The notes: a model not told the origin generated them from the sequence alone. A stretch of DNA of 42,348 nt from Candidatus Woesearchaeota archaeon (GCA_964622145.1 CAZUOK010000001.1:1-42348), one strand, 5' to 3'. Numbered from the stretch's first letter, positions 6,703 to 42,348 are shown. Numbers and translations: made by a program.

Positions 6703-6703
6703 C

Positions 6704-10090: not shown

Positions 10091-10122
10091 ACTGTTCCTT
10101 AACCCCCTTATTTTTTAAAGGA

Positions 10123-11769
10123 TTACTCACTTCCGAGGCGTAGGAACCTTATCACAACGAAGAGTACCACAAGTAATATCACAACTATGGCAACCGTTCT
10201 TATATCAATACCTTCTATTCTCTTCACCTCTATTCCTTTGAATATCTTTTCAGAATATTTAGTCAATATCTCCTCCTCTGGACCATAGTATAACCTTATT
10301 TTTATGTTTGAATTCCTTCTAAAATCCTCTTCATCCAAATATATCTTAAATGTTATTATATTCTCCCCTTTCTTCAACCTCGTGGGCTTTTTCGTCAGAG
10401 TGTAGCTCTTCCCAGCAATCGTTATCCCATACAATTCCGGTTTCAGCCACACGTACTCATTCGGATTGTACACCTTTATCCAGAGAAGCTCCTTATCCTT
10501 GTCATAATAGAGACCTTCCAATTCAACACTCTTTGAAAATGTTAAGGATGCTTTTTCAGGATAAAAGGTAAACAGTCCTTCCTCATTTCTTATCTGTCTG
10601 TCCAAAGTATCATATCCATAATAAACCCAGACCTCTGTGTAGTTTATCCAGCTGAAGTTTGCATAAAATGGTATTGAAAAGACCTCTCCAGGGAGTATCT
10701 TATGGGTTTCAGGATCTGTAAACGTAAGCTCCTTATCCCCAACAACCCTAACACCAAATATCCTAAAGTTTTCTTCAACATTACCCTTATTTTCAAGGAT
10801 TAGAAGAACTGTATTATTTCCAAAAAGTATCTTTTTTACTCTAAGATCATGTATCATGTAGTCGGTTGGTCTTGATGGCAAGGTAAGTAATTTTCCCCTC
10901 AGATAAGGATCTCCTGTCACCATCCTACCAATCCTTGCAACAACCCCTATGGTATTTCCAGACATCTCCCTTATCCTCCTCCCCCTATCCACATTCTCAG
11001 GACCTATCACCTCAACAACCCTTACCCCCAAATCCGTCAGAAATTCTGCTATCCCCCTCAGATCGTCGCTCAGTAACAATATTGGAACACCGGCCTCAAA
11101 CATGCCCTTTGTTATATATTCTCCACTTACCAGGATTATCCAGTCCCCCTTTCTGTAAGCTCTCTTCACGATTTCCTTGTTGTTTTCATATATCCCCTTG
11201 TTTAAAACCTCATACCTATTCTTTATCTTCTTCCAGGGCTGAGTGAGGAAGTCCCCATAGAATATAACTGGCTTATCCTTATTCTTGTTCAAAAATTCTA
11301 TTAGTGCTTTTTCATCATCCTCATCATAAAACAGTACCCAGTATTTCTTCCTTACAGCATAGGGAAATACTGAGATAGCATCGTAAGCAAAATCTTTCCT
11401 TACAACTATAAATCCCTCAACCCTAGGACTTATCATTTCATATAGGGAATACTGAAGATCTTTGTAATCTTTAAATCTTACATAGTGTATCATTGAGAAT
11501 CCGTAATTCATCATGGAAGACTTCAGATCTTCTATCACAGGCTTATCCATGCTCTCAAATATTGTGTAAGATTTTGTTCTGTCCAAAGTTCTCAACATCA
11601 AATCAAGATCTCCAAGGCTTGTCACATAATTAAAGTCTTCTCCAGAAAACTTCGAGTAAAGTGTTAAGATGTAACAATCCCTCCAAGACTGGGAATTCAC
11701 GATTATGTACGACTCTGCAGTGGTTATCATGATTAAGGAGAGGAATAGAGATAGCAGCATTCTCCTCAT
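10123..11769 (-). CDS. Membrane-anchored surface protein P2; paralog of 2186..3829
   Basis: 548 aa with signal peptide MRRMLLSLFLSLIMITTAES. The N-domain starts YIIVNSQSWRDCYILTLYS (compare IVVINSKDWKDVYSGILYA in P1). Shared motifs include VEVIGPENV vs VTVIGPQLT. Two Ig-like modules follow, then a C-terminal TM (VAIVVILLVVLFVVIRFL). This is the first gene of the minus-strand operon. Confidence 0.85.
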   Translation of the reverse strand: MRRMLLSLFLSLIMITTAESYIIVNSQSWRDCYILTLYSKFSGEDFNYVTSLGDLDLMLRTLDRTKSYTIFESMDKPVIEDLKSSMMNYGFSMIHYVRFKDYKDLQYSLYEMISPRVEGFIVVRKDFAYDAISVFPYAVRKKYWVLFYDEDDEKALIEFLNKNKDKPVIFYGDFLTQPWKKIKNRYEVLNKGIYENNKEIVKRAYRKGDWIILVSGEYITKGMFEAGVPILLLSDDLRGIAEFLTDLGVRVVEVIGPENVDRGRRIREMSGNTIGVVARIGRMVTGDPYLRGKLLTLPSRPTDYMIHDLRVKKILFGNNTVLLILENKGNVEENFRIFGVRVVGDKELTFTDPETHKILPGEVFSIPFYANFSWINYTEVWVYYGYDTLDRQIRNEEGLFTFYPEKASLTFSKSVELEGLYYDKDKELLWIKVYNPNEYVWLKPELYGITIAGKSYTLTKKPTRLKKGENIITFKIYLDEEDFRRNSNIKIRLYYGPEEEILTKYSEKIFKGIEVKRIEGIDIRTVAIVVILLVVLFVVIRFLRLGSE

Positions 11770-14700: not shown

Positions 14701-17700
14701 TCAGAAAAAGTAAACGTATCAATATTTGACTACCTAAAACTCCAACCCGAGACTGGGAAAAGTTGGTGGAATGAGAGTTGGAGGTATAGGATGAAGATAA
14801 ACATATCTTATACGGGACAAGGAAATTTGACGGAGTACACTGTCAACGTAACAATTGACACACAATCACTAATAACACAAGGAAAGATGAGTCCAAATTG
14901 CTCCGATATTGTTTTTACATACTACAACCAAACGACGGAGAGCGAATACGAAATTCCTTACTGGATAGAATCGGGTTGTAACACAACAAACACAGTAATC
15001 TGGGTAAGAGTTCCTCTGATAAGAAACTCCACAAATGAAACCATTTACATGTACTATGGGAATCCAAATGCGAAAATATACTATGATCCCGACGATGTCT
15101 TCGAATATTTTGTAAATTTCACGAAGCTTGGCGTTCAATCTGCGTATGGTTCTGGCCAAGACATTACCCCAAACAACTGGGAGATTGTTAATGACACCAT
15201 TCTGCATCTCTGGGGAAACAACTGGAAAGGTGTTTATTACGGTCCAATAAAGATAGAGGGGGATGGTTCCCAGATACTGGAACTCTACATGAACGGTACA
15301 GATACCGCTGAGATATATGGAGTAGGATTCGATGTAGATCTTGACAATGTGAATGATGCCCGAGGATCCTTCTACAAGTTTGCTGGGTCACAAGCATGGG
15401 GACTAACTCCAGACCAAAGCTACACAAACTTTGGGAATTGGCAGAGAGTTTACGCAATTTTGGATGATTTTTCTGGTCAGTATTTATACTTTATCTTCTC
15501 AAACGATGACGATGCGGACTCAAACGGAAATGTCTGGTATAAGAACGTTAGGGTGAGGAAATACGCAACACCAGAACCAACAGCAACAGTGATTGGGGAG
15601 GAAGTATTGAGTATAAGGCCATCTGGATACTACATCTCAAAGGTAATTGACTTGGGTTCTCAAGATGTCAGGTTTGGGAACATATATTGGATTGCAAAGG
15701 TACCACAAAACACTTCCCTCAAGGTTTATACAAGGAGTTCAAGTGATGGGGTTGCTTGGTCCGTGTGGTACGAGGAGATCAACAACACGGATGTGAACGC
15801 TCCGGACGCAAGGTACATCCAATATAAAGTTGAGATGACAAGTCAGGATCCAAACAAGACCCCAATCTTTGACAAAATTGTTATAGAATACACGTACACC
15901 GCCCCGAAATTCAAAGATATGAAATCTTCCGGAACCCCATTCACAACCACAAATCCGTACGACTGTGGTGTACTTGATCAAACAAACAACGTTTGTTACC
16001 CATCCTTCCAGGTAACCCCAACGGAGAAAGGGAACTTCACATTAAGATTGCTCGCAAACTCCACGGACACGAACATAGAGCCGGCGGAATCCCAGTGGGT
16101 TAACATAACAGTTTATGAGAGGACATACATAACGGATTTCAAGATACAACCCTCCGTTCAATATAAGGGAGGTTCTGTAACAATTTCTGTAAGACTTCTT
16201 GATGCATCCTCAAATCCCATCCCAAATCAGAACATAACCTTTACGGATGAAACGGATGGAACAACGATTGGATCAGTCCTAACAGACTCTAACGGATACG
16301 CTGTTATCCAATACAACATCCCAAGAAACGCTTCCTTAGGCTATCACACAATAAGGGCAGACTATCCTGGGAATTCATCCCTATTCTATTACTCCTCCTG
16401 GTCAACGGAACAACTTAAAGTATCGAGCTCTCCACAGTTCTGGGAAATAGGAACAAACGATACCTACATAGGGACAGGGGAAAGAGTCAAGATCTTCGCA
16501 AACGTAACGGACGAAGTTGGACTGGACACAGTCCTTGTGTTTATAACATATCCTAATGGAACAGAAGTCAATAGGACAATGACTTACAACAAGGCTTCAG
16601 GATACTACGAATACGTTACGGAAAAGCTTTGGGAAAAGGGGAATTATTCATTCTATATATGGGCAAACAACACTGATGGAATAGAGAACAAGTCATGGAC
16701 GGAGAACTTCTATCTGAAGATTGTTGGTAGGCTGGATGTGTCAACAGAGAAAGAGAAGTACAAGAACTTTGAGATATTGCATCTCTCAAACATGAATAGG
16801 GAGTGGGACATGCCAGGATATGCTTATAGAAGATGGTTGAGCATATATTCAAATCAAACGGAATGGGGAACAGCTGTTCTAAGGGTTGACACAAAGTCTT
16901 TAATATCAGAAGGGAAGATGAACCCGGACTGCTCTGATATAAAGTTTGCAAAGATAACGACGATAGAAGAGATAAAGGTCCATATTGACAACCCCTATGG
17001 AGTTTACAGATCCGACTTCGTTTTCCCAATTGAGATAACAGATAAAAGATTCTTGGGGAAGGTTGATCCAGCAGGTAGGGATATAAGAATATTTACGTAT
17101 AAGACAGACCAGCCCTACTCCCAAGAGCCAGATGTTCCCTTCTGGGTAGAAAGCATAACGAGCTCAAGAGCTAGGATCTGGATAAGACATAACCTCCCAA
17201 TAAACGGTCTTGATCTTTACATATATTATGGAAAGCCTGGAGCGGAAAGCAAGAGTAACTACACCGCGGTGTTCAAGGAAGTTGTTGGGGAGGCTGGGAT
17301 AGTTTATACAAATGACTCTTGGGTCAACTTCTCTTACCTGAATTCAACAGGAGATACCGTGTTTGTGTTCTCAAGCATAAATACATACTATGGAAGTGAT
17401 GAGGCATTCACAAGGATAACAAAGGTAAATTCTTCGGGATTCCATGTCTTGATACAAGAATCTGTTGCTCTAGATCAAAGTCATGCTTATGAAAAGATAG
17501 GCTGGATAGGATTTAGAAAGGGGGCTTGGATTGTCTGTGGTAAAGTGATATACGTAGGGAACGATTCCATAGATTCGAATTACAAAACGGTTACCGTCCC
17601 ATACTCCTTCCAGGATCCTGTCTGGGTAAGCCAGATACAGACCTTCTATGAGACTGATCCTGCCCATACAAGGATGAACAACCCAGGATCAAATTCCATA

Positions 17701-20700
17701 AACATTAAGATAGAGGAAACAAACACAGCGGATACTCCTCACACCTATGAAAATGTTGCATACCTTGTAACAGAGCAATTCGTTTGTGAAAGTGGGAACT
17801 TTAAAATAGCAACGGGGAAGAAGTATCACAGACAGAGTTCTGATGTCTCAGCAACAGCGGGATGGACTTACTACGACCTCCCAAACTTCCCAACAACACC
17901 GGTTGTTGTTGCAAAGATAATGACGGAGAGGGGAGGAGACAACGTCCACGAGAGGATAAAGGATGTTACAACAGATGGATTTAACTACGCTATGGAAGAA
18001 GAATCTGGATACGATGGACCACACATAGAAGAGTGGAATGGGTACATTGCGGTGACTCCTGGACCAATATACGGAGCGAAATTAGAAGATACTTGGCCAA
18101 CAACCACAATAGTTGAGGGTCCAAATGTGATAGCAAAGACCATTGAGGAGATACCCCACTATCTCAAGTCAAATTGCAATCAAAATGATACAGAAATCCT
18201 TGTGAATTTGAAGCAAGTAAGTGAGGGGGAGAATAGGGTTTACATGTACTATGGGAATCCGTACGATAAAGAGATTGAAAACACTGGAGAGGATGCTATC
18301 AATGTGTTTACATATCCATCCCAGTACTGTAGCTATGTCGTCCTTGGAATAGGAGGATCTAGCATGGATATTGTTAGCTATTCTCATAACAACATTATTA
18401 GTATTGGTGGGACAACAATAACGCTGAACAAGGGAGAGTACACAACAGTTTCGGTGTCAAATGGGGATGAAATATGTTCAACAGGTCCTATATCAACCGG
18501 TACACAAAGCACTGGGGATGGTGCACCAGCAGTTCCAAAGACCTGGGCTGGAAAAACATTTGTGGTTGCTGTTACAAGGTACAATCCAGTTTACTTCGAC
18601 ATATACGCCCTTGAGAATGCAACGATAAGGGTCTACAACAGCACGGGAACGGGGTGGACTCTTGTAGAGGAGTTTAGTCTTTCAGAGGGGGAATACATAC
18701 AAAAAAGCTATCCTGGGGGAGACTCGAGAGTAACAACCATAGAAGTATCCTATCTTATAAATTCTACTGGAAATATCTTAGTATTCTACAGAGGGAAGAG
18801 CGATGACTACATGCCACTTACCCCAGCAAACACAGAGCTTTATTTGAATCCAACGCAGTACCTTGTAATAGCAGCAATCTACGACAACACAAATGTAAAT
18901 ATTTACTTCTCGGATGGATCCTCGACAACCGTAACACTAAATGCTGGACAAGGATGGGTTGGAGGTGCATATGGAAGTGATGGAAATGCAAACTCTGTTA
19001 GAATAGTTTCCGACAAGCCGATATTTGCATATCAACAGGCAGATTCTGATGGAACAGAAACCACGCCTGGAGTCTCACCCAAATATATGGACAGGATATT
19101 CTTCTTCCCACAGGATGCTGAATACTTTGTTGCAACAACAAAAACAAACAAAACAACCTACTGTGCCCTGTATGACACAAATGGAACACTTGTCAACGAA
19201 TGGACGGTAACAGCGAGCTATCCGTATCCGGGAAAGATAGGGTATGGAACAGGTCAAGATGGGACGATAAATATAAGGAAGGGCTACAAGTTGGTCTGTA
19301 ATGAAAGCGTAATCGTGATATATGAAGAATCTTCTAACGATGCCGAAACCATACTCTACGGTCCAAGCGCCCATGCAAAGATAATAAACGTTACATACAA
19401 TGACCTTGGGATCGAAGAAGATTACTACGTTAACATTGAAAACAACGGTAATGAGACAATAAGAGGTTATATTTATGCAATAATACAGAGATTTGAGGAT
19501 GGACAGTGGGTGAACGTCCCTCCAGCGATAATAAACGATAGGGCATCTGAAAATCTCAGAGTTATAGGGCCAGGAGAATCCCTAAATCTAACGTATCTTT
19601 GGGAATATTATGGAGCTTGGAACACAAGCTCAAATCCAAATGGAAGGTACAGAGTATACGTAAGGTTCGAAGATGAAAAGGGTAATGTAATAACTGACTG
19701 GTACGGAAACCCACTAGAAGACTACGGATACTTTGAGATAATCCCCGCAGACCTTTCGATAATAAACCTGACACACAAGGCAATGTATGAAAAGGATCTT
19801 GAGGAATACGAGACAAACGATACAATAGACTGGATAAACCTAACAGTAACCTCTCTTGAGAATACTGGTATAGATACAAGGGTTTACCTGACGTTTATAG
19901 ATGAGTCTGGGAAGTATGTTGGATTTGGACCAAATAGTGAGGAAAGGACTTGTGGAACTATTGAGGAGAATAATACCTGCTCTGTTTCGTATGGTCCGGT
20001 AACAATTCCAGAGAACACGGGTAACTTGGTTGTTAGGTTCAAGGTAAATCTAACCGCCCAAAACTCCGGAGGGGCGATCTTTGACACGAGAGGAATAAAC
20101 TTCAGGTATGCTGTTCCATTGGATGTTGAGGAGATATCTGGAAACAATCTTATAAACTATCCTGTAATGCTAATATTGAATGTCTCTGACCTGATAAATA
20201 AGGGGAAGGTTAGGAGTGATCTCGCAGACCTGAGGGTCTTGGATGATAAAAAGAAGGAGGTTCCAAGGCTAATACTGGATTACAACGAAACCCACAAGAT
20301 AATATTCTTCCCGACAAACCTTTCAGCAAACGAGAGAAAAACTTACTACCTTGTCTATGGAAATTCCTCCCTTTCCCAACCGAGCTATCCAGATGTGTAC
20401 ATGTTTGAGTACCTTTCAGGATACGACCAGTGGAAAACAATATCAGATAGCAGGCAGAATCTCATCATAATAGCCTACTTCAACAACACAAAGTTCAAGG
20501 TCGAGGGAGGTATAAATGTGAACGGAACACTAAACGCTGGGGAATTCTACAAGGTTGAGCTACCAACAAACAGCCAATACAGTCCATTGAAGTACATTAT
20601 TAAGACAACAAAGCCGGTAACTGTCATAATTGGAAGTACTGAACTCTCAAGACCAAATGGAGCAACCTATTCATTAGATTACCTCTCAAGACCTTATGGA

Positions 20701-26700: not shown

Positions 26701-29700
26701 GAAACTTACAGAGAGGTCGTTGACCTGGTATGTCAGGTGAAGGATTACGACACCGGAAGTCCGATAAGTGATTATGTTGTAGAATTCTACAACTCCACAA
26801 GCTATTTGGGATCAAACAAGACGGATTCAAATGGATATGCTAGGCTTAGAGTTGATCTCTCAAGCTACACGCCAGGATACAACACATTCTACTGCAAGAT
26901 TGTAAAAGATGATGAGAAATATTATGATCCCGCGGTATCTTCTGTTGGAAAGGATGTTCTTATAAAGGGAAAACTCAATGTGACAATAGTAAATCCTGAG
27001 AATGGAAGCTCTCTTGAAAGAGGGGAGACGTACTGGCTAAACTCAACAACATATGATGAATTTGGCAACAAGGTAACACCTGATTCATCATATTGGTTTG
27101 AGGGGCAAACGGAGATAGGATCCGGAGAGAACATCACATGGACTGTTCCATCGGATCATCCCCTCGGTCCAACAGTTATAAAAGTAAACGTTACAAAACA
27201 ATACTACGATCCCGCTGAGGACAACATAACAGTGTACATCTACGGTCATTCCTCAGTTGTGTGGGTATCACCAGAAGATGGGAGCTATCCATCAGGAAGC
27301 ATCCTGGAATTGATATGTTATGTAAACGACACAGATAGAAATTCTGGGATATCTGGATATCCCGTAAGCTTCTACTACAATGGAACCCTCATAGGGACAT
27401 CTAATACAAACTCAACAGGTTACGCTGTAATATCATGGGATACTTCAGGATTGGATGGAACGTACAATGTAAGTTGTGAAATTGGAAACTACAGTTATTA
27501 TATAGCAAAGAAAACATCAGATTCCACAATGATTGAGGTATACCTTGACACAACACCACCAAACGTCACGATAGTATCTCCAGAGAACAAGAGCTACAAC
27601 ATAAATACAATACCTCTGAATTACACCGTACAAGACGAACACTTGGATTCCTGTTGGTACGAACTTGATGGGACGAATTACTCACTTCCAAATTGTGAGA
27701 ACACAACGCTTACAAACTTACAGGAAGGAAGTCATTATGTAAGGGTCTATGCGAACGATACTGCTGGGAATGTTGGATATTCCGAAGTTTGGTTTACTGT
27801 TGACCTTACAAGTCCCGTAATAACCATAATATCTCCCGAAAACAGAACGTATGGTGAAACAGGAATTTGGATGAATATAACACTAAATGAGGCTGGAAGT
27901 GTGTGTATGTACTCTATAGATGGTGGACAAAACCAAACAATGAACAAGCTTAACGATACTTACTTCTACAGGTTCGCATCTGTTGGAGAGGGAACTCACA
28001 AGGTCAAATTCTTCTGTAACGATACCGCAGGGAACTGGGGGAGTGCCCAAGAATTCTTCACAGTAGATCTAACGGCCCCCACAGTAACACTCTACGAACC
28101 CGAAAACAATAGTGTTCTAGATCAAGGCAATGTAACCTTCAAATGCTATGCAGAAGACAATCTAAAACTCATTAACGTTACTCTATACACAAACAAGTCT
28201 GGATCTTTCTCTCCAGAGCTAACAAACTCGAGCGGGATAAATGGAAATTATACATTCAAACTAACAATGTCAGAAGGATATTATATCTGGAACTGCAAAG
28301 CTTGCGATGATATCAGATGCTCATTTTACTCAGAAAATTGGAGCTTCTATGTGGACTTGAATGCTCCCACTGTTACAGTAGTATCACCGGAAAACAAGAG
28401 TTACAATACGAATACAATACAACTAAATTATAGTGCAAGTGACTTAACCTTGGATTCCTGTTGGTACGAACTTGATGGGACGAATTACTCACTTCCAAAT
28501 TGTGAGAACACAACGCTTACAAACCTTGCGGAGGGATCCCATCATCTAATCGTTTATGCGAATGACAGTTTGGGTAGAGTAGGATATGATGAGGTTTGGT
28601 TTAGAGTTGATTTGACACCTCCAAGCCTTGTTGTTGTCTCTCCAGAGAACAACACAGAGTATGGGACTCCAAACGTCCCACTAGAGTATTCCGTCTCCGA
28701 TAACATAGAGGTGGATACTTGTTGGTACGTCCTTGATGGCGGTCAGCCAACAGTATTGCTAAACTGCCAGAACACAACGCTATCTCTTGACAACGGTCCA
28801 CACAATATAACTGTGTACGTAAACGACACTGCCGGAAACACGAACCAGAGCTTTGTACAATTCACAGTAAACTCAACAGCCCCATACGTAAAGATCCTAC
28901 ATCCTGTTGAGGGGAACTACTACAACAACCAAACCATATGGTTGAACTATACAGTACAGGATACGGATCTTGATTCCTGTTGGTACAGCATAGACGGTGG
29001 AGACAATGTTAGCATTCCAAACTGTCAAAACATAACCATAACGGTCTCCGATGGCTCACACAATGTGAAGGTATATGCAAACGATAGTCTTAATCAGATT
29101 GGATGGGATTCTGTGAACTTCTTCGTTGACACTGTCCCCCCAAGCCTTGTGTTGATATCTCCGGAAAACAAGAGTTATAGTGAGAATACGATATGGATAA
29201 ATTACACCGTGAACGATACAAATCTTGATTACTGTGTTTACGAGCTGGATGGCTCGAACACAACAGTATCTGATTGTAGTAATGTAAGTCTGGAGTTGTC
29301 AGAGGGAAGCCACTACGTAAGGGTGTTTGCATTCGATAAAGCAGGGAACTACAACGTAACCTCAAAGGTCTGGTTCACAGTTGACACAACACCACCAAAC
29401 GTCACGATAGTATCTCCAGAGAACAAGACGTACACTGTGAACGATATCCCACTAAACTACACGGTATCTGATAACTTCGAGATATCCATGTGCTGGTATG
29501 TCCTGGACTCCCAGGAGGAGGTCTATCTACAAGGCTGTCAGAACACAACATTAACGAATGTTCCTGATGGGAGTCATAGGATAAGGGTCTATGCGAATGA
29601 CTCTGCTGGGAATGTTGGATACTCTGAGGTTTGGTTTACTGTTGACACAAGGGGTCCGAACATATATTTCGTCCCACCAACCCCAGGAGATAACCAAGCT

Positions 29701-32700
29701 ATAGATTACAATTGGACTTACATAAACATAACAACGGATGAGGATGCTAGCATCGCAATACTGGAATTCGATTTCAACAACGGTACGGTTTTGAACTTTA
29801 CCATGAATCAGAACAATCCAAGGAATTGGTGGTACAATGTTACGGATCTCCAGGATGGGACGTACTATTATAGAGTCCATGCGAACGATACCTTCGGCAA
29901 CTGGAATACAACAGCATGGAGAACTGTCAGGATCTCTGTTGGGGCTCCAGCAATAAACATAATATCTCCAGAGAACAAGACATACAAGGATTCTAACTAC
30001 ATCCAGCTGAACGTTACTGTGAACAAAGAGGTTTCTGCTTGGTGGTATTCAATAAACAACGGTAGGAATATCACCTTCACTCCAAACATATCCATAGCCG
30101 CAAGGATTGGATCAAATGTTGTAAGGGTCTATGCGAACGACTCTGCTGGGAATGTTGGATACTCTGAGGTTTGGTTTACTGTTGACACAACCTTCTGGGA
30201 GGACAAGTTCGATCACTACAGTGGTCTTGAAATCTGGGAAAATATAACAATAGAAAATGGGAGTGCAAAGATAAGATTCTGTTATCCAGTATTTGAGCCT
30301 GATTGCTGGAAATATAGGGTAAGAATAAATGTATCAAATCCAGACACCCAAGACCACACAGATGTCCAGCTGAATCTTACTGTGGATACACAATCCCTTA
30401 TATCTGAAGGGAAGATGAATGGGAACTGTTCTGACATAAGGTTCACTTACTACAATCAGACCAGTGGGGAAGAGTACGAAATACCTTACTACATAGAATC
30501 GGGATGTAACACAACAAGCACGATAATCTGGGTAAAGGTTCCCTTCGTCCCCGCGGGAGGCAGTTCCATTATATACATGTACTACGGAAACCCTGGAGCT
30601 CAAGGAAGGTCAAATATCTCAGAGGTATTCAATTATTACAACAATATCGGACAGTGTAATGGCTCGGTGGCTGGGGGAAGCTGTTCAGTAATATTTGATG
30701 CCCCAGCTGGGGAAGTATTCTACGAGGCAAATCTCACTATGAGGATGGCTGGAGACTTCGGATATGGAGGATCATTCTCATCAGATGCTGTTTGTGATGA
30801 GAATTATGAGAGGGCAAATCTTATTGTTGACGGATCGGTAATAGGTTGTTATTCCACAGGCATTGATGGTTGTACACTGAACGAGCCTCCGGGGATGCCA
30901 GTAAGCATAGATGTCAGGAACAAGGGATCCGTAAATGTTACAGGAGATTCCACGGATGTTGTAAATCTTGATCCAAACAATTGTGGATTCTACTATAAGT
31001 TCGAGTTTGAAATAAGTGGATACACGAGGAAGAATGCTACCCTAGAGTACTCTGTTGGAACTGAAGAAGTTGCAATAAGGAATGCAAAGATTAGGAGCAT
31101 AGCAATAAAACCAAGGAAGGTTGCAAGATGGTTGAAGTTTTATGGTGTACACAGCATACCAACGGGGACAGGAATTGAGTACAGGATCCTTGACAGCAAC
31201 AACAACACCCTCCTTGTCTGCAATTCTGAGACAGCACAGACTGGTTGTGATCTCTCAGGTATTAATGCAAAAGAAATAAAATTAGAAGCAGTATTGACAA
31301 CAAACTCAGAGGCTACTCCAGAACTCATGTACTGGAATGTATCCTGGACACCAAACTCAAGTGTTGCGATAAACGTCATAAATGAGACCTCTGGAACCAT
31401 ATCGAACGCTCTTATAAGAATTCTAAGAAATGGAACAGTATTGGCTGAAGGTTATGGAAGTGTTGTTGTAGATGTTGAGATATACGAAAACTACACAGTA
31501 GAAACAATTACAGGAACATCTTATGGAGATCTCCTGCTAAGACTCTTTGAGCTCAATGTTACAAAGGATACAATAGAAATAAAGGAACAAATTGTTGAGA
31601 ACTACACAGGAAACCTCCCACAAAACATCTGGAAGGTCACTCCAGTTGTTGCTCTGAACGACACAGACTTGAATTACTCCAAGGCGACGCTTGTGATACC
31701 GAAGGGAGATGTCCAAAGCATTGATTATATATTACACTGTACGGACTGGAACTACACCTCAGCAACATGTAACAACTGGGTTACATCAGATCCAAACAGT
31801 TACGAGGGATTTGGTGAAAACTCAACACACTTCTGGTTCAACGTGACAGGATTCCAGGCATACGCTGGAGGGACTGTAGGATATGATGTACAAGTGAATG
31901 AAATAACATTTAACAAAACAAAGCCTGTTGAAAATGAAACCGTGCTTGTAACAGCAAATGTGAGTAATGAGGGAAGTTCTGATCTCACAAATGTTACCAT
32001 AAGGCTTGAGATATATCTATGGAATGAAACTTCAGGAAGCTGGATACTGGATGAGAGCTATGAGAAGAACGTCTCAATACCCGTAGGAAACTACACACTC
32101 GTAAACTTTACTTGGACGGCAAAGATAGGTACCTACAATTTCACAGTAATTGCAGATCCCTACGATCAGATTGATGAGGTAAACGAGAGCAACAATGCAA
32201 ACTGGAGCGAGCTAAATGTTTCCGCATGGACAATATACTATGGACACGTGAATGGTTGGATAGTTATAGGAGGAAACAACGGAGAAAACTTTACGGTTTG
32301 GATACCTTATATGATAGAGGGAAATCTTTACTTTGCAGATCAAGACTCAAGCTTTGAATTTGAGAATCTCATGCCATTAAATGGAACAAACGATCTTGAA
32401 GAGCTGGATGAAGCGCTTAACATGAGCATATACAAAGATTCTGTATCAAACGTTTATGATAAGGATGGGGATGGTGTACCAGACCACACGGATTGTTTCA
32501 GCATAGGTAACAGGCTCCTATGCGATGTGCCAGTAGTAAATTCAACCGAAGAAAACAACGGAAACTTTGTTACAGGGATACTTTGGGATTCAGGAGATGG
32601 AGGAACAGAGTACAATGGAACACAAGATGTTGTTTTTATAACGAAGGTAAACTATAACAAAACAGGAAGTTTTGGAAGATACGACTACGAGGTAAGAATA

Positions 32701-32776: not shown

Positions 32777-32800
32777 TTGATTTTTTCAAAAAGAAGAGAT

Positions 32801-33811
32801 ATGAGTGAATTTGAGCCTGAAAAAGAGTTAGAGATTTCAAAGGAAAAGATTAGAGAATTTAGAGACAAGATACATACTCTTAAAGAAGAAATACACAAAA
32901 CAATAGTTGGTCAAGAAGAAGTTGTAAAACAGGTATTGGTCTGTCTTATATGTGACATGCACGCCCTACTCGAGGGAGTTCCAGGCCTTGCGAAGTCCCT
33001 TCTAGCAGAAACACTTTCGAGATGTATTGAGGGGGCAACATTCAAAAGGATACAGTTCGTCCCAGACATGCTACCATCAGACATTATAGGGGTTACAATC
33101 TTCGATCCATCAACAGGGACTTTTAAGACTGTTAAAGGACCAATATTTGCGAATTTTATAATCGCTGATGAGGTCAACAGAGCCCCTCCAAAGACACAAA
33201 GCGCTCTCTTGGAAGCAATGCAGGAGAGGAGGGTGTACATATATGGGGAGGAATATCCCCTTGAAAGACCATTCCTCGTCCTAGCAACCCAGAACCCGCT
33301 AGAACAACAGGGGGTCTATCCCCTATCAGAGGCCTTTGTGGATAGATTCTTCATGAAGATATTGGTCGATTACCCAAGTTGGGATGAGGAGATGGAAATA
33401 ATAGATAGAAACACAATGGTCCAATATGACGTTCTTGAGAAGGTCAAAAAGGTCATGACAAAAGAAGATATAGTAGAGATGCAGAGGGCTGTTAGGAAGA
33501 TCTATATAGCTAGACCGATAAAGGAATACATATTAAGGATTGTCCAGACAACGAGGGGGAAAGGTGAAAAAATAAGGTATCTGAAATATATAAGGTACGG
33601 TGCCTCACCTAGGGGTTCCATATCTTTAGCACTTGCGGCAAGGGCTATTGCAATGATGAAGGGAAGAAACTTCGTGATACCAGACGACATAAAAGAAATA
33701 ATATACCCTGTCCTCAGGCACAGGATCATACTGAACTTTGAAGGAAGGGCTGCTGGGATATCTACAGATGAAATAATAACGGAGATACTTGAAAATGTTG
33801 AGGTTCCTTGA
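32801..33811 (+). CDS. MoxR-family AAA+ ATPase
   Basis: Walker A GVPGLAKS and Walker B/sensor block FIIADEVNRAPPKTQSALLEAMQERRV. Also present are PFLVLATQNPLEQQGVYPLSEAFVDRF and the C-terminal GASPRGSISL lid motif. All are hallmarks of MoxR (AAA_3). The start is taken at ATG 32801 rather than the track TTG at 32777, which would overlap the TATA box. Confidence 0.92.
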   Translation: MSEFEPEKELEISKEKIREFRDKIHTLKEEIHKTIVGQEEVVKQVLVCLICDMHALLEGVPGLAKSLLAETLSRCIEGATFKRIQFVPDMLPSDIIGVTIFDPSTGTFKTVKGPIFANFIIADEVNRAPPKTQSALLEAMQERRVYIYGEEYPLERPFLVLATQNPLEQQGVYPLSEAFVDRFFMKILVDYPSWDEEMEIIDRNTMVQYDVLEKVKKVMTKEDIVEMQRAVRKIYIARPIKEYILRIVQTTRGKGEKIRYLKYIRYGASPRGSISLALAARAIAMMKGRNFVIPDDIKEIIYPVLRHRIILNFEGRAAGISTDEIITEILENVEVP

Positions 33812-34724
33812 GCTGTTTAGGGGGAAACCAGAGATCCCAGTAAGGGTCCTTGAATTCAAAGAGCTTTGGAACAAGAGCATAGTTAATGTTTGGAAGCTGC
33901 TAGAGATACTTAGATTTCAGTTCATATACTACAGGGTAATAACTGGGAGAGGTTTGGAATTCGACAGATTGAGGGAATACACTCCAGAGGATGATGCAAA
34001 GTTCATAGACTGGAGGGCTTTCGCGAGGTGTAGGAAGCCTTACGTGAAGGTCTTCAAGGAGGAGAGGAGATTGGATATTGTATTCCTTGTGGATGTCTCA
34101 ACAACCATGGTCCTTGGGACAACAAGGTACACAAAGAATGAGTACGCATCAATACTTGCAACAACTCTGGCACTTGTTTCCCAGTCCCTTGGAGATAGGG
34201 TTTGTCTTGTCGCATTTTCGGATGAGATAAAGAAGTTTGTTGAGCCCGGAATATCCATTGACAACGTCCTCCAAATAGCAAAGGCCCTCTGCGATAGAGA
34301 AATATACGGTGGAGGAAAGAATTGGAGGATTGTGTCCCCGACGATACTTGAGACCTTTGGGCCAAACACCTTTGTCTTCATACTCTCCGACTTTATTGGG
34401 GAAAAGAGGGATTTATACGATCTTCTAATGAAATTCTCGAACAAATTTAAAGGAGTTGCTGGAATAATGATAAGAGATCCACTAGACTCTTACATACCGG
34501 AGGGAATAGGAAAGATTTATATCCAGGATCCAATGACTGGAGAAGTAATGCTTGTTGATATGGACAAGATTAGGGAAGAGTACAACAGGACTGTTGAGGA
34601 GGAGGAAAGAAAACTGAAAGAAGTATTTTTGTCTTATGGGAGCTTGTTTGCAAAGACTTTGACAAACAATTTTGACTTTCCAGGATTGATACTCTCCCTG
34701 TTTGGGGGAAGATTATGGAAGTGA
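33789..34724 (+). CDS. DUF58-family protein (vWA-like fold, MoxR partner)
   Basis: GLEFDRLREYTPEDDAKFIDWRAFARCRKPYVKVFKEERRLDIVFLVDVSTTM is the signature DUF58 block (G-x-EF-x-x-R-x-Y-x-x-GD-D-x-R-x-IDW...). Overlaps the moxR 3' end by 23 nt, which suggests translational coupling. Confidence 0.88.
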   Translation: MKMLRFLELFRGKPEIPVRVLEFKELWNKSIVNVWKLLEILRFQFIYYRVITGRGLEFDRLREYTPEDDAKFIDWRAFARCRKPYVKVFKEERRLDIVFLVDVSTTMVLGTTRYTKNEYASILATTLALVSQSLGDRVCLVAFSDEIKKFVEPGISIDNVLQIAKALCDREIYGGGKNWRIVSPTILETFGPNTFVFILSDFIGEKRDLYDLLMKFSNKFKGVAGIMIRDPLDSYIPEGIGKIYIQDPMTGEVMLVDMDKIREEYNRTVEEEERKLKEVFLSYGSLFAKTLTNNFDFPGLILSLFGGRLWK

Positions 34725-35707
34725 ACCTTGGGAGGATAGCAATTGAAATTTCCCTTCCACTTAGAAGCCTCTCCACACTTCTCATACTAATAACATTTAC
34801 CATCCTTTCTTATCTTTTCATGACAAAGGTTAGGAGGAGGAGGGTCCTAAAGTTTGCGAACGTATACACCTTGAGAACCATCCACGGATTCAAATCCATA
34901 AGTCCAAGCCCTCTAATACTGATATCAAAAATCCTTGTTGTATCCCTCCTTTTCCTTGTAGCGACAGAGTCCATAAGGATAATGACAAGAAGTCCAATAT
35001 CCGATACGGATATCTGCTTCGCAATAGATACCTCCCCAACCATGCTCCTTCCAGATTACAAACCAAATAGAATAGAATTCGTCAAGAGCATTATATTAAA
35101 GTGGTTGGACGAAATCCCCCCAGGAGTTCAGATATGCATAGTAAAGTTCTCCAACAAACCTTACCCTGTAACCACTCTGACAAATGATAGGATAAAGATA
35201 GAGAGGAGTGTGAGTGAGATAACCGTTGACCTTAACTCCAGCGGTACCGCTATAGGAGATGCCATCTTTGAGGCAACATCAATACTTTCAACCTCAAAAA
35301 AGAAGAGGTATTTGATACTTATAACAGACGGTAAGAACAACATCGGGAGGAACCTCTCGGAGGCGGTTAGGGTTGCAAAGGAAGAAAACGTTAATGTTTA
35401 CGTCGTTGGGATAGGACCAACAAACGAGACAATAAGGATGTTCAATGAGCTAAAAGAGATTGCTGAAAGGATGAATATAAGCTTTACATTCCCTGAAGTT
35501 GATGAGGAAGGGCTTAGAAAGGTTTCGGAAGAGACGGGGGGAGAATTCTTTTATGTTGTTGATGAGAACAAGTTTAAGGAAGCTATGAACAAGATCATTG
35601 TCAGAGAAAGCATGGTCTCTTTAAACACAGACTATTACATCCTTTTGTTCATTTCCGCACTTCTAGGTCTGGAATTGATACTTTTCTCTGTGCTTGGGGC
35701 TGTATAA
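34715..35707 (+). CDS. vWA-domain membrane protein (BatA-like)
   Basis: N-terminal TM followed by RRRRVLKFANVYTL (BatA-like N-terminus). MIDAS-type D-x-S-x-T (FAIDTSPTM), SGTAIGDAI and LITDGKNN motifs are present, with a C-terminal TM (YYILLFISALLGLELILFSVLGAV). Overlaps the DUF58 gene by 10 nt. Confidence 0.88.
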   Translation: MEVNLGRIAIEISLPLRSLSTLLILITFTILSYLFMTKVRRRRVLKFANVYTLRTIHGFKSISPSPLILISKILVVSLLFLVATESIRIMTRSPISDTDICFAIDTSPTMLLPDYKPNRIEFVKSIILKWLDEIPPGVQICIVKFSNKPYPVTTLTNDRIKIERSVSEITVDLNSSGTAIGDAIFEATSILSTSKKKRYLILITDGKNNIGRNLSEAVRVAKEENVNVYVVGIGPTNETIRMFNELKEIAERMNISFTFPEVDEEGLRKVSEETGGEFFYVVDENKFKEAMNKIIVRESMVSLNTDYYILLFISALLGLELILFSVLGAV

Positions 35708-35728
35708 TCTTTGGATGGTAACAAAAGA

Positions 35729-35736
35729 TTTATATA
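35729..35736 (+). promoter_or_regulatory. TATA box (TTTATATA) for the S2 gene
   Basis: Centred about 27-28 nt upstream of the ATG at 35760. Identical octamer and spacing as upstream of S1. Confidence 0.5.
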
Positions 35737-35759
35737 AAGGTAGTTGCTTCTGGAATGAC

Positions 35760-36449
35760 ATGATTAAGAAACTGCTTGTACTCTTTGCAGTGTTGCTGTT
35801 ACCAATGGCATTCTCGGTACCAGCAAACGCAACAGTATCTGCAGGTACATCAGAGAGATACCCAGAAGCAACAACTCCAGGAACTGTCACAGCGCAAGCT
35901 GGAAATGTAACACAAGTAAACGTGTCCAGTGTACAAGTAACAGGAAAATGGGTAGGTTTCTGGGGAGAGGTAAGTGGACAAATAGTGCTCGGAGATTCTA
36001 GTGGGAACATATTCTATCAATGGACAATATCCGATCCTACAGGGGCTGTTGTGTATGTGTGTAATGACACAGTTTCGGACTGGTCAACCCTACAGCCCCT
36101 GTATGCAAACAGCAGTGTTCTTCCGGACTTCCTGATAACAGGAACAGATTCCTTCAACAACACATTCAAATATCAAGAAACATTCACAAGTCCTAGCATG
36201 ACGATAAACAACGTAAATTACACACTTACATGGCAGAATGGTGCTGAAGGTTCAGACTTCAAGACATATGCATTGTACGCAAATGAAAGCGCAACAACTG
36301 GTAAGATAATACTTGTCTGGGCAGGCCTTGTAAACGCAAACAAGCCATCATTCAAGGGAGGGACTATAACAGCTGATTACCAGGTATTGGCTGGAGTAAA
36401 CACAGAGGGAGGACAACAAACATTCTACTTCTACCTAGAGCTACCGTGA
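35760..36449 (+). CDS. Small secreted protein S2 (S-module family; paralog of 1324..2040)
   Basis: 229 aa from ATG 35760. The track ORF starts at 35694, but that extension covers the TATA box and lacks signal-peptide character. Signal peptide is MIKKLLVLFAVLLLPMAFSVPANA. Collinear with S1 (see that feature). Confidence 0.85.
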   Translation: MIKKLLVLFAVLLLPMAFSVPANATVSAGTSERYPEATTPGTVTAQAGNVTQVNVSSVQVTGKWVGFWGEVSGQIVLGDSSGNIFYQWTISDPTGAVVYVCNDTVSDWSTLQPLYANSSVLPDFLITGTDSFNNTFKYQETFTSPSMTINNVNYTLTWQNGAEGSDFKTYALYANESATTGKIILVWAGLVNANKPSFKGGTITADYQVLAGVNTEGGQQTFYFYLELP

Positions 36450-37448: not shown

Positions 37449-37895
37449 ATGGCTGGGGACATACAAAAGAATATCCTTGAAATGTCAAAGTTGATAGATG
37501 TCCTTTACAAGGTTTGTTACACATCTTGTGTAAAGGGGGACTACGAGCTCTCAAAATTTGCAAGGATGATGTACAGAAAGCTTCAGGAGATGGAAGTAAA
37601 GACCCTAAAAATGGTGTTCAGAATAAAGGTGAACGATTCTGAGAGGATGGTACTTCTTGGGATAATAGATGGAATAATGGACATAGCAAACACCTCCCTG
37701 TCCCTGTTACAATTCTTGGACTACAAGAAGGAATTTCTAAAAGACTTCAAGGGGCTTGTTGATTTGAAGGAGGGAAAATCCTTTGTTGGAAAGAAGAGGA
37801 GTGAAGTTGGGGGGATAGCTATTATTAGGAAGGGAAAGATAATCTTTTCTGACACGGTGATAAAACCAGACGACAAGGTGTTGATCCAGACATGA
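37449..37895 (+). CDS. Regulatory protein with PhoU-like helical N-domain and TrkA-C (RCK C-terminal)-like domain
   Basis: 148 aa from ATG 37449. The longer track ORF would overlap taw3. The C-terminal VGKKRSEVGGIAIIRKGKIIFSDTVIKPDDKVLI resembles TrkA-C. It directly precedes and overlaps (ATGA) the transporter genes. Confidence 0.6.
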   Translation: MAGDIQKNILEMSKLIDVLYKVCYTSCVKGDYELSKFARMMYRKLQEMEVKTLKMVFRIKVNDSERMVLLGIIDGIMDIANTSLSLLQFLDYKKEFLKDFKGLVDLKEGKSFVGKKRSEVGGIAIIRKGKIIFSDTVIKPDDKVLIQT

Positions 37896-38380
37896 AGGAC
37901 ATCATCCTCTCGGAGTCTTTGTCAATAATAACAGGAGTCCTTGCGGGGGCTGTTTTGGTATCCGTTAGAAATGAAATACTCAGATATCCATCGATATTAA
38001 TAGCCCTTCCAGGTCTGCTCCAAATGAGGGGAAGTGTTGGTGGGATACTTGCATCCAAGATGGGGACAGAGCTTCACTTGGGGACAATGAACAAGAAAAA
38101 ACTCTTTAGAATGATAGCCTCAAACATACTATCAAGTTTCATTGCATCTCTAGTAGTTTCCAGTATAACAATCCCATTTAGCAATGATTTGAAGCCATTC
38201 TTTGTTGTTTTTCTTGCAGGCTTCTTATCTTCCATTGTAGAGATACCTTTGATTGTGATACCCGAGGAAAAGCTGTTCAAGAAGGGGATAGATCCTGACA
38301 GCGTTATGGGGCCCTACTTAACATCGATAGACGATCTTATAACAACAAGCTTGCTGGGTGTGTTGTTATGGGTGTTTTGA
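37892..38380 (+). CDS. MgtE-like divalent-cation transporter membrane domain protein (half 1)
   Basis: 162 aa and polytopic. LPGLLQMRGSVGGILASKMGT and GIDPDSVMGPYLTSIDDLITT match the MgtE membrane-domain motif G-x-DP-x-x-x-x-P-x-x-T-x-x-D. Confidence 0.75.
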   Translation: MKDIILSESLSIITGVLAGAVLVSVRNEILRYPSILIALPGLLQMRGSVGGILASKMGTELHLGTMNKKKLFRMIASNILSSFIASLVVSSITIPFSNDLKPFFVVFLAGFLSSIVEIPLIVIPEEKLFKKGIDPDSVMGPYLTSIDDLITTSLLGVLLWVF

Positions 38381-38880
38381 GGGATGTGAAGGAGGCGGTT
38401 CCGATAATACTCCTCTCCACCCTACTCAGTTCCTTTGGAGGATTGTTCTTGGAGCCAAGGATAGAGAAGCTTGTGAGGATTTACCCTCTCCTACTTATAA
38501 TACCTCCCCTAAACGACATGATGGGGGATTTTGGGATGATACTATCCTCAAAAATCACAACCTCCTTGTTCTTAGGGAGGAAGGATTTTAGGAAGATATT
38601 CTTCGATATTCTTGGAGCTTGTTTCTTTTCGGGTCTTTTGCTGATCATCCTCTCAGGGATATGGGAATTTGGGATTTCGTTAACAATAAAGCTTTGGATT
38701 TCAGTCCTCCTTTCATCCCTCATAGGAGTGGTTTCTGTTGGGGTATTTTGCCTAAAAGTTGGGATGGTATCGATGGAGAAAGGAATAAATCCGGACAACA
38801 TCCTTCCCCCCCTCGCAACCGGCTTGGCAGACCTCCTGAGTATGCTTTTATATTCCCTCTTCATTCTACTCCTTATATGA
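38368..38880 (+). CDS. MgtE-like divalent-cation transporter membrane domain protein (half 2)
   Basis: 170 aa and polytopic. IPPLNDMMGDFGMILSSKITT and GINPDNILPPLATGLADLLSM are paralogous to the preceding gene. Overlaps it by 13 nt. Confidence 0.75.
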   Translation: MGVLRDVKEAVPIILLSTLLSSFGGLFLEPRIEKLVRIYPLLLIIPPLNDMMGDFGMILSSKITTSLFLGRKDFRKIFFDILGACFFSGLLLIILSGIWEFGISLTIKLWISVLLSSLIGVVSVGVFCLKVGMVSMEKGINPDNILPPLATGLADLLSMLLYSLFILLLI

Positions 38881-40491: not shown

Positions 40492-41072
40492 TAGTTATCT
40501 TTGACCTAGATGGGACAATAGCTGATAGCTTTGAAGCCCACTACCTCAGTTTCAAAGAAGCTTTTGAAGAGATTCTTGGAATATCCCCAAAATGGGAAGA
40601 AATATTTAAACTGTTTGGTTTGGAAGGGAGGGAGATAATAGAGAAGGTCTTGGAGAAGTATGGAATGGGAAGAAATGGAGAGATTGTTGAAAGGATCCTT
40701 AAGAGGAAGAATGAATTAACTAGAAAGTACTTTGGGAAGATAAGATTGAGGGAAGGTGTCCTTGAAATGTTGAAGTACTTAAAGGAAAAAGGCCTGAAGA
40801 TTGCCCTCCTATCAAATTCTTCGAGGGAAGATGTGATGAACATCGTCGACTACCTTGGAATTGGAGAATTCTTTGATGTGATAATCTCGGTTGATGATAT
40901 TAGAAAGGGGAAGCCAGACCCAGAGGGGATAATGAAGATTATGGAGATATTGAAAGATAAAGATGTGGTGTATGTTGGGGATAGGGATGTTGACAGGGAA
41001 ACCGCAGAGAGGGCTGGAGTTCGCTACTTTGGGATAGAGGAATTTTTGAAGAAATATAAGGAAATCATATGA
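40488..41072 (+). CDS. HAD-superfamily hydrolase, subfamily IA (phosphatase/phosphoglycolate-phosphatase-like)
   Basis: Motif I is FDLDGTIADS, motif II LLSNSS, motif III GKPDPEG, and motif IV YVGDRDVD. ATGA overlap with the upstream gene. Confidence 0.85.
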   Translation: MIVIFDLDGTIADSFEAHYLSFKEAFEEILGISPKWEEIFKLFGLEGREIIEKVLEKYGMGRNGEIVERILKRKNELTRKYFGKIRLREGVLEMLKYLKEKGLKIALLSNSSREDVMNIVDYLGIGEFFDVIISVDDIRKGKPDPEGIMKIMEILKDKDVVYVGDRDVDRETAERAGVRYFGIEEFLKKYKEII

Positions 41073-42348
41073 GATTATATCTCTTTAGTTCTTCGTGAAG
41101 CTCCCTCAGGATCTCTTGATAGTAAACCTCTCCCCTCTCTATCTTATCCATTTTTTCTTCCAGTTCCCTCGTCCTTTCCTCAGATATGAGCTCCTTATAA
41201 TTTTTAAACAGGAAGTTACAAACCTTCCTACCCCTTCTGGTTGGAATCAAGAAGTACTTCTGCCTTACATACCTCCTCTTCTTTATCTTTGATATTATGG
41301 TGGCATAGGTTGAAGGTCTCCCTATCTTCTTCTCCCTCATCTCCTGGACCAAAGTACCCTCTGTGTACAAGACTATCTTGGAATCCTTTCTGTATGTCTT
41401 CTCCAAGACATTGTACTCCCCTTCTTTTATCTCCTTCTCCTCTATTACAGGATTAACAAGTAGCCATCCCTTCTCAATTATCCTCTCTGGCACCTCCATC
41501 TCCTTTTTTATCCCAATCTCAGGAATCTCCACAAGGATCTTTGAATACAGTATCTTCGCGGGGGCCATTTGGGATGCTATGAACCTCCTGAATATTAATT
41601 CATAAAGGGCTATGTGATCCCTCCCAACGTTTTGATAGACTTCCTCTGATATCAATTCCAGCAACCTCCTAACATCTATAGGTCTTGTTGGTCTTATGCA
41701 CTCATGTGCACCACCCTTTCCCCAAGGTCTTCCCTTGTAGTACTCTTCCCCAAAGTTCTCCGAGATGTACCTCTTCGCTATCCCCATTCCCTCAGGAGAT
41801 ACCCTTATGGAATCCGTCCTGTGGTAGGTTATCAAACCCATTTCGAAGAGGTCTTGGGCAACCTGCATAGTCTTTGAGGCCCCCCATCTGAGAATTCTTG
41901 ATGCCTCTGATATCATGGACTGCGTCTCGAAGGGGGGGAGTGGATTCTGCTCCTTTTCATACCTTTCCAGGATTTTCACCCTAACCTTCCTTATCTTTTC
42001 CAATACTTTCTGTGCTTCCTCCTCATCTTTGACCTCTGGGAGAGCAAACTCTAGCTCCAGATCTCCAAACTTTACAGTGAAGAAGTAGTGGAGATCCTTT
42101 ATCCTGTTGTCATACCTATCTATTATCCATTTTAAAACTGGTGTTTGGACCCTTCCAGCCGAGAGATTCCTGTTCTTGAACTCCTCCCAAAGCCTTTGAG
42201 AAAGGGTAAATCCAATCCACCTATCCTCAATCCTTCTGACGATTTGGGCTTCGACAAGGTTTAAATCAATATCCCTTGGATTCTCAAGAGCTTTTAATAT
42301 AGCTCTCTCTGTTACCTCATGAAATTCAGCCCTTTTTATGTTTTTGAC
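41065..42348 (-). CDS. rgy: Reverse gyrase, C-terminal (type IA topoisomerase) part; 5' end off-window
   Basis: The frame is open from 42348 down to the stop at 41065 (the track ORF from 42003 is an internal Met). Topo IA motifs: RVQTPVLKWIIDR, GLITYHRTDS (catalytic Tyr region), HECIRPTRP and GRPSTYATII. Reverse gyrase is the usual form of this domain in a hyperthermophile, but the helicase part is not in the window. A stand-alone topo IA cannot be strictly excluded. Confidence 0.8.
   Translation of the reverse strand, partial: VKNIKRAEFHEVTERAILKALENPRDIDLNLVEAQIVRRIEDRWIGFTLSQRLWEEFKNRNLSAGRVQTPVLKWIIDRYDNRIKDLHYFFTVKFGDLELEFALPEVKDEEEAQKVLEKIRKVRVKILERYEKEQNPLPPFETQSMISEASRILRWGASKTMQVAQDLFEMGLITYHRTDSIRVSPEGMGIAKRYISENFGEEYYKGRPWGKGGAHECIRPTRPIDVRRLLELISEEVYQNVGRDHIALYELIFRRFIASQMAPAKILYSKILVEIPEIGIKKEMEVPERIIEKGWLLVNPVIEEKEIKEGEYNVLEKTYRKDSKIVLYTEGTLVQEMREKKIGRPSTYATIISKIKKRRYVRQKYFLIPTRRGRKVCNFLFKNYKELISEERTRELEEKMDKIERGEVYYQEILRELHEELKRYNLI

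Follow-up and report, generated by a model that had tools for sequence, protein, structure and literature searches.

The 42,348-nt stretch of DNA from Candidatus Woesearchaeota archaeon that we analysed (GCA_964622145.1, CAZUOK010000001.1:1-42348; hereafter the window) contains a giant open reading frame (ORF) in which ten immunoglobulin (Ig)-like units, numbered U1 to U10, stand in tandem. Units that are not adjacent share short patches of identical or nearly identical DNA. The best explanation as a whole, to which we give a probability of roughly 80%, is that these patches were left by repeated, non-reciprocal short-patch gene conversion between the units of an old ten-domain stalk. The ORF, the array and the shared tracts are as follows.

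11785-32766, plus strand: giant ORF of 6,993 aa, uninterrupted, with the whole array region 27544-30190 inside it
27547-30183, plus strand: the ten Ig-like units in tandem, which make up aa 5255-6133 of the protein
27545-27592, plus strand: 48-nt tract, U1 copy, covering the linker, strand A and the SPENK turn; both flanks bridged by a contig of run X3 (27457-27658)
29381-29428, plus strand: 48-nt tract, U8 copy, bridged by a 1,213-nt contig of run X1
27642-27717, plus strand: 76-nt tract, U1 copy, unit aa 33-57, LDSCWYELDGTNYSLPNCENTTLTN, with both cysteines
28449-28524, plus strand: 76-nt tract, U4 copy, identical to 27642-27717
29582-29650, plus strand: 69-nt tail tract, U8 copy, strands F-G plus the first codons of the next unit
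30122-30190, plus strand: 69-nt tail tract, U10 copy, bridged by a contig of run X2 (30020-30215)
27738-27804, plus strand: older tract in the tail of U1, 67 nt; it differs at 5 positions from the U10 tail (30120-30186) and at 8 from the U8 tail (29580-29646)

Direct comparison of the copies showed 0 mismatches in the 76-nt pair and in the 48-nt pair. The tail pair had 1 mismatch (T at 29598, C at 30138), leaving a perfect run of 52 nt between 29599-29650 and 30139-30190. None of the three pairs could be extended by a single base. No exact direct repeat in the window other than these reached 25 nt, and the next longest had 22 nt. The original prediction, made from the sequence before this analysis, had called the array a recombination hotspot; this holds in the limited sense that the array contains all of the long identical tracts of the 21-kb gene. 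A 22-nt exact repeat (15044-15065 and 18239-18260) in DUF2341-containing regions is the longest identical stretch of the giant gene outside the ten units.

The lengths of the tracts were compared with simulations of the longest identical run for each pair of units, using column match probabilities taken from the other pairs and rescaled to the overall identity of the pair in question. The null 99th percentiles were 19-31 nt and the simulation returned P<5e-5 for U1-U4 (76 nt), U1-U8 (46 nt within the unit) and U8-U10 (45 nt within the unit). By contrast, 0/42 other pairs fell below P=0.002. Synonymous sites gave the same picture. Where aligned codons specified the same degenerate amino acid, unflagged unit pairs used the same codon at 40% of sites, and we took this as the background. 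Inside the tracts the same codon was used at 24/24, 15/15 and 14/14 sites (P of about 3e-10, 1e-6 and 3e-6). The comparison of U1 with U4 contained 19 synonymous differences outside the tract and none at the 24 sites inside it. The edges of the tracts were sharp, with only 22-67% identity in the 30-60 nt flanking them on each side.

The structure of U1 bears on the same question. At sites where U4 and U8 differ from each other, U1 was U8-like at 16/16 positions in its head, U4-like at 37/37 in its middle and U8-like at 19/25 in its tail (runs test on the U1/U4/U8 triplet, P=5e-5). This indicates that U1 is a three-part mosaic with a probable head from U8, a probable middle from U4 and a tail near those of U8 and U10. 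The tail, with 5-8 differences in 67 nt, is to all appearances the product of an older event of the same kind. Taken together, the run lengths, the identity at synonymous sites, the sharp edges, the mosaic U1 and the comparison with homologues described below argue for recent short-patch gene conversion.

The units themselves were delimited by sequence and with a profile hidden Markov model (HMM) of the units. Each of the ten scored 79-131 bits with this profile, and the other Ig domains of the protein scored no more than 15 bits. They are 81-99 aa long with pairwise nucleotide identities of 33-75%, and U1, U4 and U8 are overall the most alike (58-75%). At this level of identity the array does not consist of near-identical whole-unit DNA repeats of the Bap, alpha-C or Rib type, and Tandem Repeats Finder reported no array within 27544-30190. 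A Pfam search with aa 5001-6993 of the protein returned Big_13 (PF19077; 90.5 bits, gathering score 27), Big_7 (PF17957; 86.8 bits, gathering score 24.1), Big_3_3 (59.2 bits, gathering score 27) and Glucodextran_B (55.8 bits, gathering score 27), all above their gathering scores. We modelled U1 with AlphaFold2, giving as input 26 aligned units taken from the window and from three homologues. The model is a seven-strand beta sandwich with a mean predicted local distance difference test (pLDDT) score of 97.3, and its best Foldseek matches in the PDB were SiiE BIg, PKD, FN3-like and glucodextranase domain B folds, with template-modelling (TM) scores of 0.65-0.79. When placed on the model, the 48-nt tract would correspond to the linker between domains, to strand A and to the SPENK turn. 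The 76-nt tract (residues 33-57) would take in three strands, the third of them short, as well as a short helical turn and both conserved cysteines. The tail tract would comprise the final two strands and the opening codons of the following unit. The original prediction had described ten Ig-like units of about 88 aa, much more diverged outside the tracts than within, and had proposed recent recombination or gene conversion between non-adjacent units. Its repeat coordinates (76 nt, 48 nt, and 69 nt with a 52-nt run) proved correct to the base, the profile found the ten units, the Pfam matches and the model agree with an Ig-like fold, and the analyses above bear out both the divergence and the recombination.

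A protein search with the C-terminal 1,993 aa of the giant protein gave no match above 43% identity. The best homologues were 37-43% identical and came from metagenome-assembled genomes (MAGs) labelled Woesearchaeota, Nanobdellota and Aenigmarchaeota; an additional homologue was found on a 'Makaraimicrobium' contig that is probably mis-binned. Three homologues (P0001, P0002 and P0003) have ten units each, and with the window this makes ten units in 4/4 deeply diverged lineages. When P0001 was compared with P0003, the unit at the same position was the best match at 8/10 positions, suggesting that the array is an old module of differentiated subtypes, which we call h1-h10. The units of the window relate to these subtypes as follows.

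27547-27801, plus strand: U1, 85 aa; mosaic with a head equal to U8, a middle equal to U4 and a tail near U8/U10; the homologues have a different subtype (h1) here
27802-28065, plus strand: U2, 88 aa; h2/h8 subtype, with its best match to h2 in P0002 and P0003 and to h8 in P0001
28066-28353, plus strand: U3, 96 aa; positional orthologue of h3 and the most diverged unit
28354-28608, plus strand: U4, 85 aa; orthologous by position to h4 and probably the source of the 76-nt tract
28609-28869, plus strand: U5, 87 aa; positional orthologue of h5
28870-29127, plus strand: U6, 86 aa; h6-like start (NST..) and h4/h5-type body
29128-29382, plus strand: U7, 85 aa; h4-type
29383-29643, plus strand: U8, 87 aa; h4/h5-type where the homologues have an h2-like subtype; its head is common to U1 and its tail to U10
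29644-29940, plus strand: U9, 99 aa; positional orthologue of h9
29941-30183, plus strand: U10, 81 aa; positional orthologue of h10

Thus, the window keeps positional orthology for U3, U4, U5, U9 and U10 (to h3, h4, h5, h9 and h10). The best match of U1, U6, U7 and U8 is h4/h5 and not their own positional type, and U1 sits at the place of the very different h1 subtype. Alignment scores between paralogues within the window (354 for U1-U4, 320 for U1-U8) exceed that of the orthologous pair U4-h4 (250). Paralogues were closer than positional orthologues for U1, U4, U6, U7 and U8, and the reverse was true for U3, U5, U9 and U10. The occurrence of the h4/h5 subtype at positions 1, 6, 7 and 8 suggests that conversion has been ongoing for a long time while the length of the array was kept. 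The homologous giant genes in the sequences L003-L006 contain no exact internal repeat longer than 24 nt, so the long tracts are not a by-product of constraint on the protein.

The spacings of the three repeats (807, 1,836 and 540 nt) are each divisible by three, so that reciprocal exchange between the copies would keep the reading frame and leave an array of seven, three or eight units. Since all four lineages have ten units, length-preserving, non-reciprocal conversion fits better than unequal crossing-over or cycles of expansion and contraction.

We weighed whether the pattern could have arisen during assembly or polishing, giving chimeric units and tracts or a unit order that are absent from any one genome. 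The sequence was found in seven runs, where it is present as Logan k=31 contigs at a depth of about 2-6x. This low word depth, together with the breaking of the contigs at each tract, is what an artefact would look like. So is the 1,213-nt contig of run X1, which joins 29598 to 30139 and leads from the U8 tail directly into the sequence after U10, skipping 540 nt. Moreover, two junctions next to the tail tract were reproduced nowhere. Against this, a mis-join in an assembly graph needs a shared word that already exists and cannot create one. The two flank contexts of the 48-nt tract are each on a single contig from two different studies, the X3 contig 27457-27658 bridging the U1 copy with both of its flanks and the X1 contig 28495-29650 bridging the U8 copy. 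Contigs of X1 leave the 76-nt tract into both of its right-hand contexts (27688-28101, and 28495 onward), and another X1 contig (28407-28524) enters it from the U4 side. The X2 contig 30020-30215 bridges the U10 tail tract. The repeat copies are nested or sequential and not interleaved (H1 R1 R4 H8 T8 T10), so no path other than the order in the window would pass through every segment exactly one time. The three homologues have the counterparts of U2-U5 and of U9-U10 in the same order, with the C-terminal region after them, and this supports the assembly. Finally, flanks that are 22-67% identical are too diverged for reads to have been mis-mapped during polishing. We therefore regard an artefact as improbable.

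The body of U9/U10 that the 1,213-nt contig skips is present in X1 at a depth equal to that of its neighbours (5.14 versus 5.76/5.41). This again counts against an artefact in the window, and the 540-nt skip is best read as an artefact of k=31 assembly, probably a graph traversal of the 52-nt repeat. We rejected a natural deletion allele as its cause on the same ground. A subpopulation with an 807-nt deletion was considered from the lower depth of U2-U3 in X1 (3.4-3.6 versus 5.8) and dropped, the difference being within sampling noise. The risk to short-read assembly that the original prediction had raised was evident here, where k=31 contigs broke at the tracts and one jumped from the U8 copy to the U10 copy of the tail tract. 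The region at 27.5-30.2 kb is a place where k-mer assemblies fragment or skip units, and the array length of related MAGs is not to be trusted without long reads. At window position 30129, in the U10 copy of the tail tract, runs X3 and X5 have T where the window and X2 have C; this was the sole strain-level difference seen inside any tract, and the U8 copy is uncovered in X3 and X5.

Recent duplication of whole units followed by very fast and patchy divergence, for example by diversifying selection on loops, would leave the tracts as the unchanged remainder. The overall similarity of U1, U4 and U8 (58-75% of nucleotides) is in keeping with this, and whole units could in principle have been replaced at positions 1, 6 and 8. 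However, U1 would then need two parents for adjacent segments, since it is U8-like at 16/16 sites and then U4-like at 37/37. Synonymous differences outside the tracts are near background (19 for U1-U4, against 0/24 inside), indicating that the flanks are old and not selectively diverged, and identity drops from 100% to 22-67% within a few bases. Duplication predicts uniformly low synonymous divergence with high nonsynonymous divergence outside the tracts, and the observed profile is the opposite. We consider this explanation unlikely, and a little more so than an artefact.

The identity of every synonymous site also raised the possibility that the tracts are kept identical by selection on the nucleotide sequence itself, which might serve as a binding site, form an RNA structure or contain an internal promoter; no direct point favors it. 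The tracts are three unrelated sequences at three unit positions, each in two (for the tail, three) of the ten units, and in the four closest homologous genes identical stretches do not exceed 24 nt, so the tracts are not conserved as DNA in distant homologues. Such selection is very unlikely. Diversity-generating retroelements are common in DPANN archaea, where their targets are Ig-like or lectin folds. A retroelement of this kind, or other targeted hypermutation with template and variable repeat pairs, can be dismissed here, since no reverse-transcriptase domain was found among the scanned ORFs of at least 230 aa, the tract pairs are identical and do not differ at adenines (the changes between the U1 and U8/U10 tails include C/T, T/C, A/T and A/G), and both copies lie in frame inside one ORF.

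Some observations weigh against gene conversion as we read it. The support from public runs consists of k=31 contigs at about 5x depth, which cannot bridge the 76-nt repeat, and the junctions at 29651-29718 (U8 to U9) and 30094-30138 (U10 body to tail) were in no indexed public contig. The proposed donor direction follows from positional orthology alone, and the likely ancestral order of subtypes follows from three homologues at 37-43% identity. There was no close strain or species in the collections searched, and no conversion event was seen as a polymorphism. Searches of runs with a U1-specific stretch and with the U8-U9 junction found no further run. Among contigs of sequenced genomes scanned with the C-terminal anchor, the only match was nanohaloarchaeal (34% identity over 168 residues), and metagenome contigs scanned with this anchor and with a degenerate 42-nt pattern of the tail tract gave nothing. 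The original prediction had expected copy number or the exposed surface to vary between strains, and the collections searched, which hold no close relative, gave no evidence of such variation.

Contigs of 719 and 1,200 nt in runs X2 and X3, from other vents, have only words of 18-21 nt in common with the array (27694-27714, 28504-28521 and 28645-28665) and beyond these words consist of unrelated unit sequence, one of them encoding ...DNGANVTLPNC..., for example. This points to Ig-unit genes of a related kind in the same communities, whether from other organisms or as paralogues.

On the gene conversion reading, misaligned units of the one gene would recombine by ectopic homologous recombination, and the intermediates would resolve into short patches of conversion. 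Each time, about 50-80 nt would be copied from unit to unit, leaving the number of units unchanged. Three events would be very recent, with 0-1 differences between copies, involving U4 and the middle of U1, U8 and the head of U1, and U10 and the tail of U8. At least one would be older (the U1 tail, with its 5-8 differences in 67 nt), and still older events would have put the h4/h5 subtype at positions 1, 6, 7 and 8. Possible routes are repair from a sister copy, synthesis-dependent strand annealing and template switching at a stalled fork. By analogy with Sulfolobus, the enzymology may comprise RadA-type strand invasion or template switching with short-patch processing of heteroduplex. In Sulfolobus acidocaldarius, a hyperthermophilic archaeon, experiments have shown that recombination produces tracts which are short, unidirectional and sometimes discontinuous, and that it can part markers at a distance of 20-30 nt (PMC3367456). 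Such short-patch conversion fits both the tracts of 48-76 nt and the mosaic of three parts in U1, and the organism studied here is also a thermophile. In Sulfolobus, however, the exchange was experimental and allelic, with introduced DNA, whereas here it would be ectopic, between paralogous units, and is read from a single sequence.

Short segments are also copied into a surface adhesin elsewhere. In the cassette-based antigenic variation of Mycoplasma genitalium (MgPa/MgPar), a minimal-genome, host-attached organism, segments are copied non-reciprocally into a surface adhesin by gene conversion. Unlike that system, no silent donor cassettes were seen outside the giant gene, and donors and recipients would both be expressed units of the same ORF. 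Nor is there evidence here, in the window and the low-depth k=31 contigs, of switching within a population. The intragenic gene conversion described here is a real but ordinary case.

The giant protein has one hydrophobic segment only, near the N-terminus at about aa 20-50. Significant DUF2341 stretches occur in all three of the thirds in which it was scanned, along with a LamG/pentraxin domain, several other Big-type Ig domains and a C-terminal CARDB domain. It contains 292 N-X-S/T sequons, or 4.2 per 100 aa compared with 1.4 expected from its composition, and within the ten units there are 6.5 per 100 aa. High sequon density is typical of archaeal extracellular glycoproteins. Within the overall explanation that we favor, the protein is predicted to be an N-terminally anchored or secreted, N-glycosylated surface protein with the array as a stalk in its C-terminal quarter. 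A role in attachment to host cells may be supposed. The ATG with which the ORF is listed (11785) and the start of the divergent gene upstream of it (11769) are only 15 nt apart. Translation may instead begin at an internal Met codon, codon 23 at about 11851, which lies immediately before the signal-like hydrophobic segment.

Two groups of giant proteins resemble this one. Giant bacterial adhesins such as BAP/BLP of A. baumannii, SiiE of Salmonella and the Mobiluncus adhesin are likewise very large, secreted and composed mostly of Ig-like modules of 80-110 aa, and the fold of the modelled unit is predicted to be like that of the SiiE BIg domains (TM about 0.7). In Acinetobacter BAP, the Ig-like modules vary in type and number (PMC4647330). 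Here, by contrast, the host of the gene is an archaeon, the units are 33-75% identical in nucleotides and positionally differentiated instead of near-identical copies, and the signal consists of short patches at a constant ten units, read from one sequence. The SPEARE proteins SVXNc_0300 and BNXNv_0298 of nanohaloarchaea are closer in setting, each likewise being the product of the largest gene of a small-genome, probably host-dependent archaeon, with an N-terminal signal, long runs of Ig-like domains and a proposed role in host attachment. A block of 529 aa, made up of tandem Ig-like domains, distinguishes two related nanohaloarchaea, and giant Ig-rich proteins have been proposed to act in host attachment (PMC10266531). 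No Pfam match to a VirB4/TraG ATPase domain was found in any third of the giant protein, and no C-terminal membrane segment was detected. Since it lacks both, the protein is not of the SPEARE type. It differs further in its DUF2341, LamG, Big_13 and CARDB architecture and in its MoxR/DUF58/VWA neighborhood. The predicted surface of Nanobdella is dominated by Ig-fold, N-glycosylated proteins (10.1101/2023.10.27.564410).

The neighbors of the giant gene include TYW3, an archaeal/eukaryotic tRNA-modification gene, and genes for a MoxR AAA+ ATPase, a DUF58 protein and a VWA protein directly downstream. The giant gene is part of a conserved cluster (4445-11769 on the minus strand and 32777-35707 on the plus strand of the window; 8858-17666 in L004; 10047-18825 in L006). 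Five upstream minus-strand ORFs (548, 547, 580 with CARDB, 282 and 482 aa) are collinear, at 26-48% amino acid identity, with ORFs downstream of the homologous giant genes. The collinear clusters come from one Woesearchaeota MAG and one Nanobdellota MAG, and in L006, too, genes for DUF58 and VWA proteins are adjacent. The cluster could encode a multi-protein surface apparatus. It is flanked by distant paralogue pairs on opposite strands, 1324-2040 (minus) and 35694-36449 (plus) at 29% amino acid identity, and 2186-3829 (plus) and 10123-11769 (minus) at 25%, and both families are also found beside the homologous giant gene in L003. Further downstream, 37892-38380 and 38368-38880 are adjacent, slightly overlapping ORFs with one MgtE-type divalent cation transporter domain each, and they may form a split or two-subunit transporter.

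The metagenomes in which the sequence was found come from hydrothermal vents and sediments, and the end of the window contains part of a reverse gyrase gene.

41065-42348, minus strand: topoisomerase half of a reverse gyrase (TIGR01054, 367 bits), running off the window end

Its best matches were 44-51% identical. Many of these are proteins of 630-670 aa, and Nanoarchaeota, Nanobdella and Diapherotrites are among the names that they bear. This suggests a split reverse gyrase as in Nanoarchaeota. The presence of reverse gyrase marks the organism as a thermophile. To judge from its genes, it is an uncultivated thermophilic DPANN-like archaeon without a close sequenced relative.

We also considered that the array is a self-contained cassette system in which frequent short-patch conversion among ten expressed units makes mosaic surface domains. 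This is doubtful. If it were true, conversion would alter host recognition or allow escape from recognition by host or virus, while selection holds the stalk at ten domains, and the array would be an archaeal counterpart of bacterial antigenic-variation systems without silent donor loci. On the reading that we prefer, short-patch gene conversion in an old stalk, the window is a sequence-level example of how ectopic conversion may shape the giant surface proteins of DPANN archaea. Such proteins are leading candidates for host attachment in these mostly uncultivated symbionts. The number and subtype order of the modules are conserved across distant lineages while their content is overwritten, which hints at selection on the length of the stalk.

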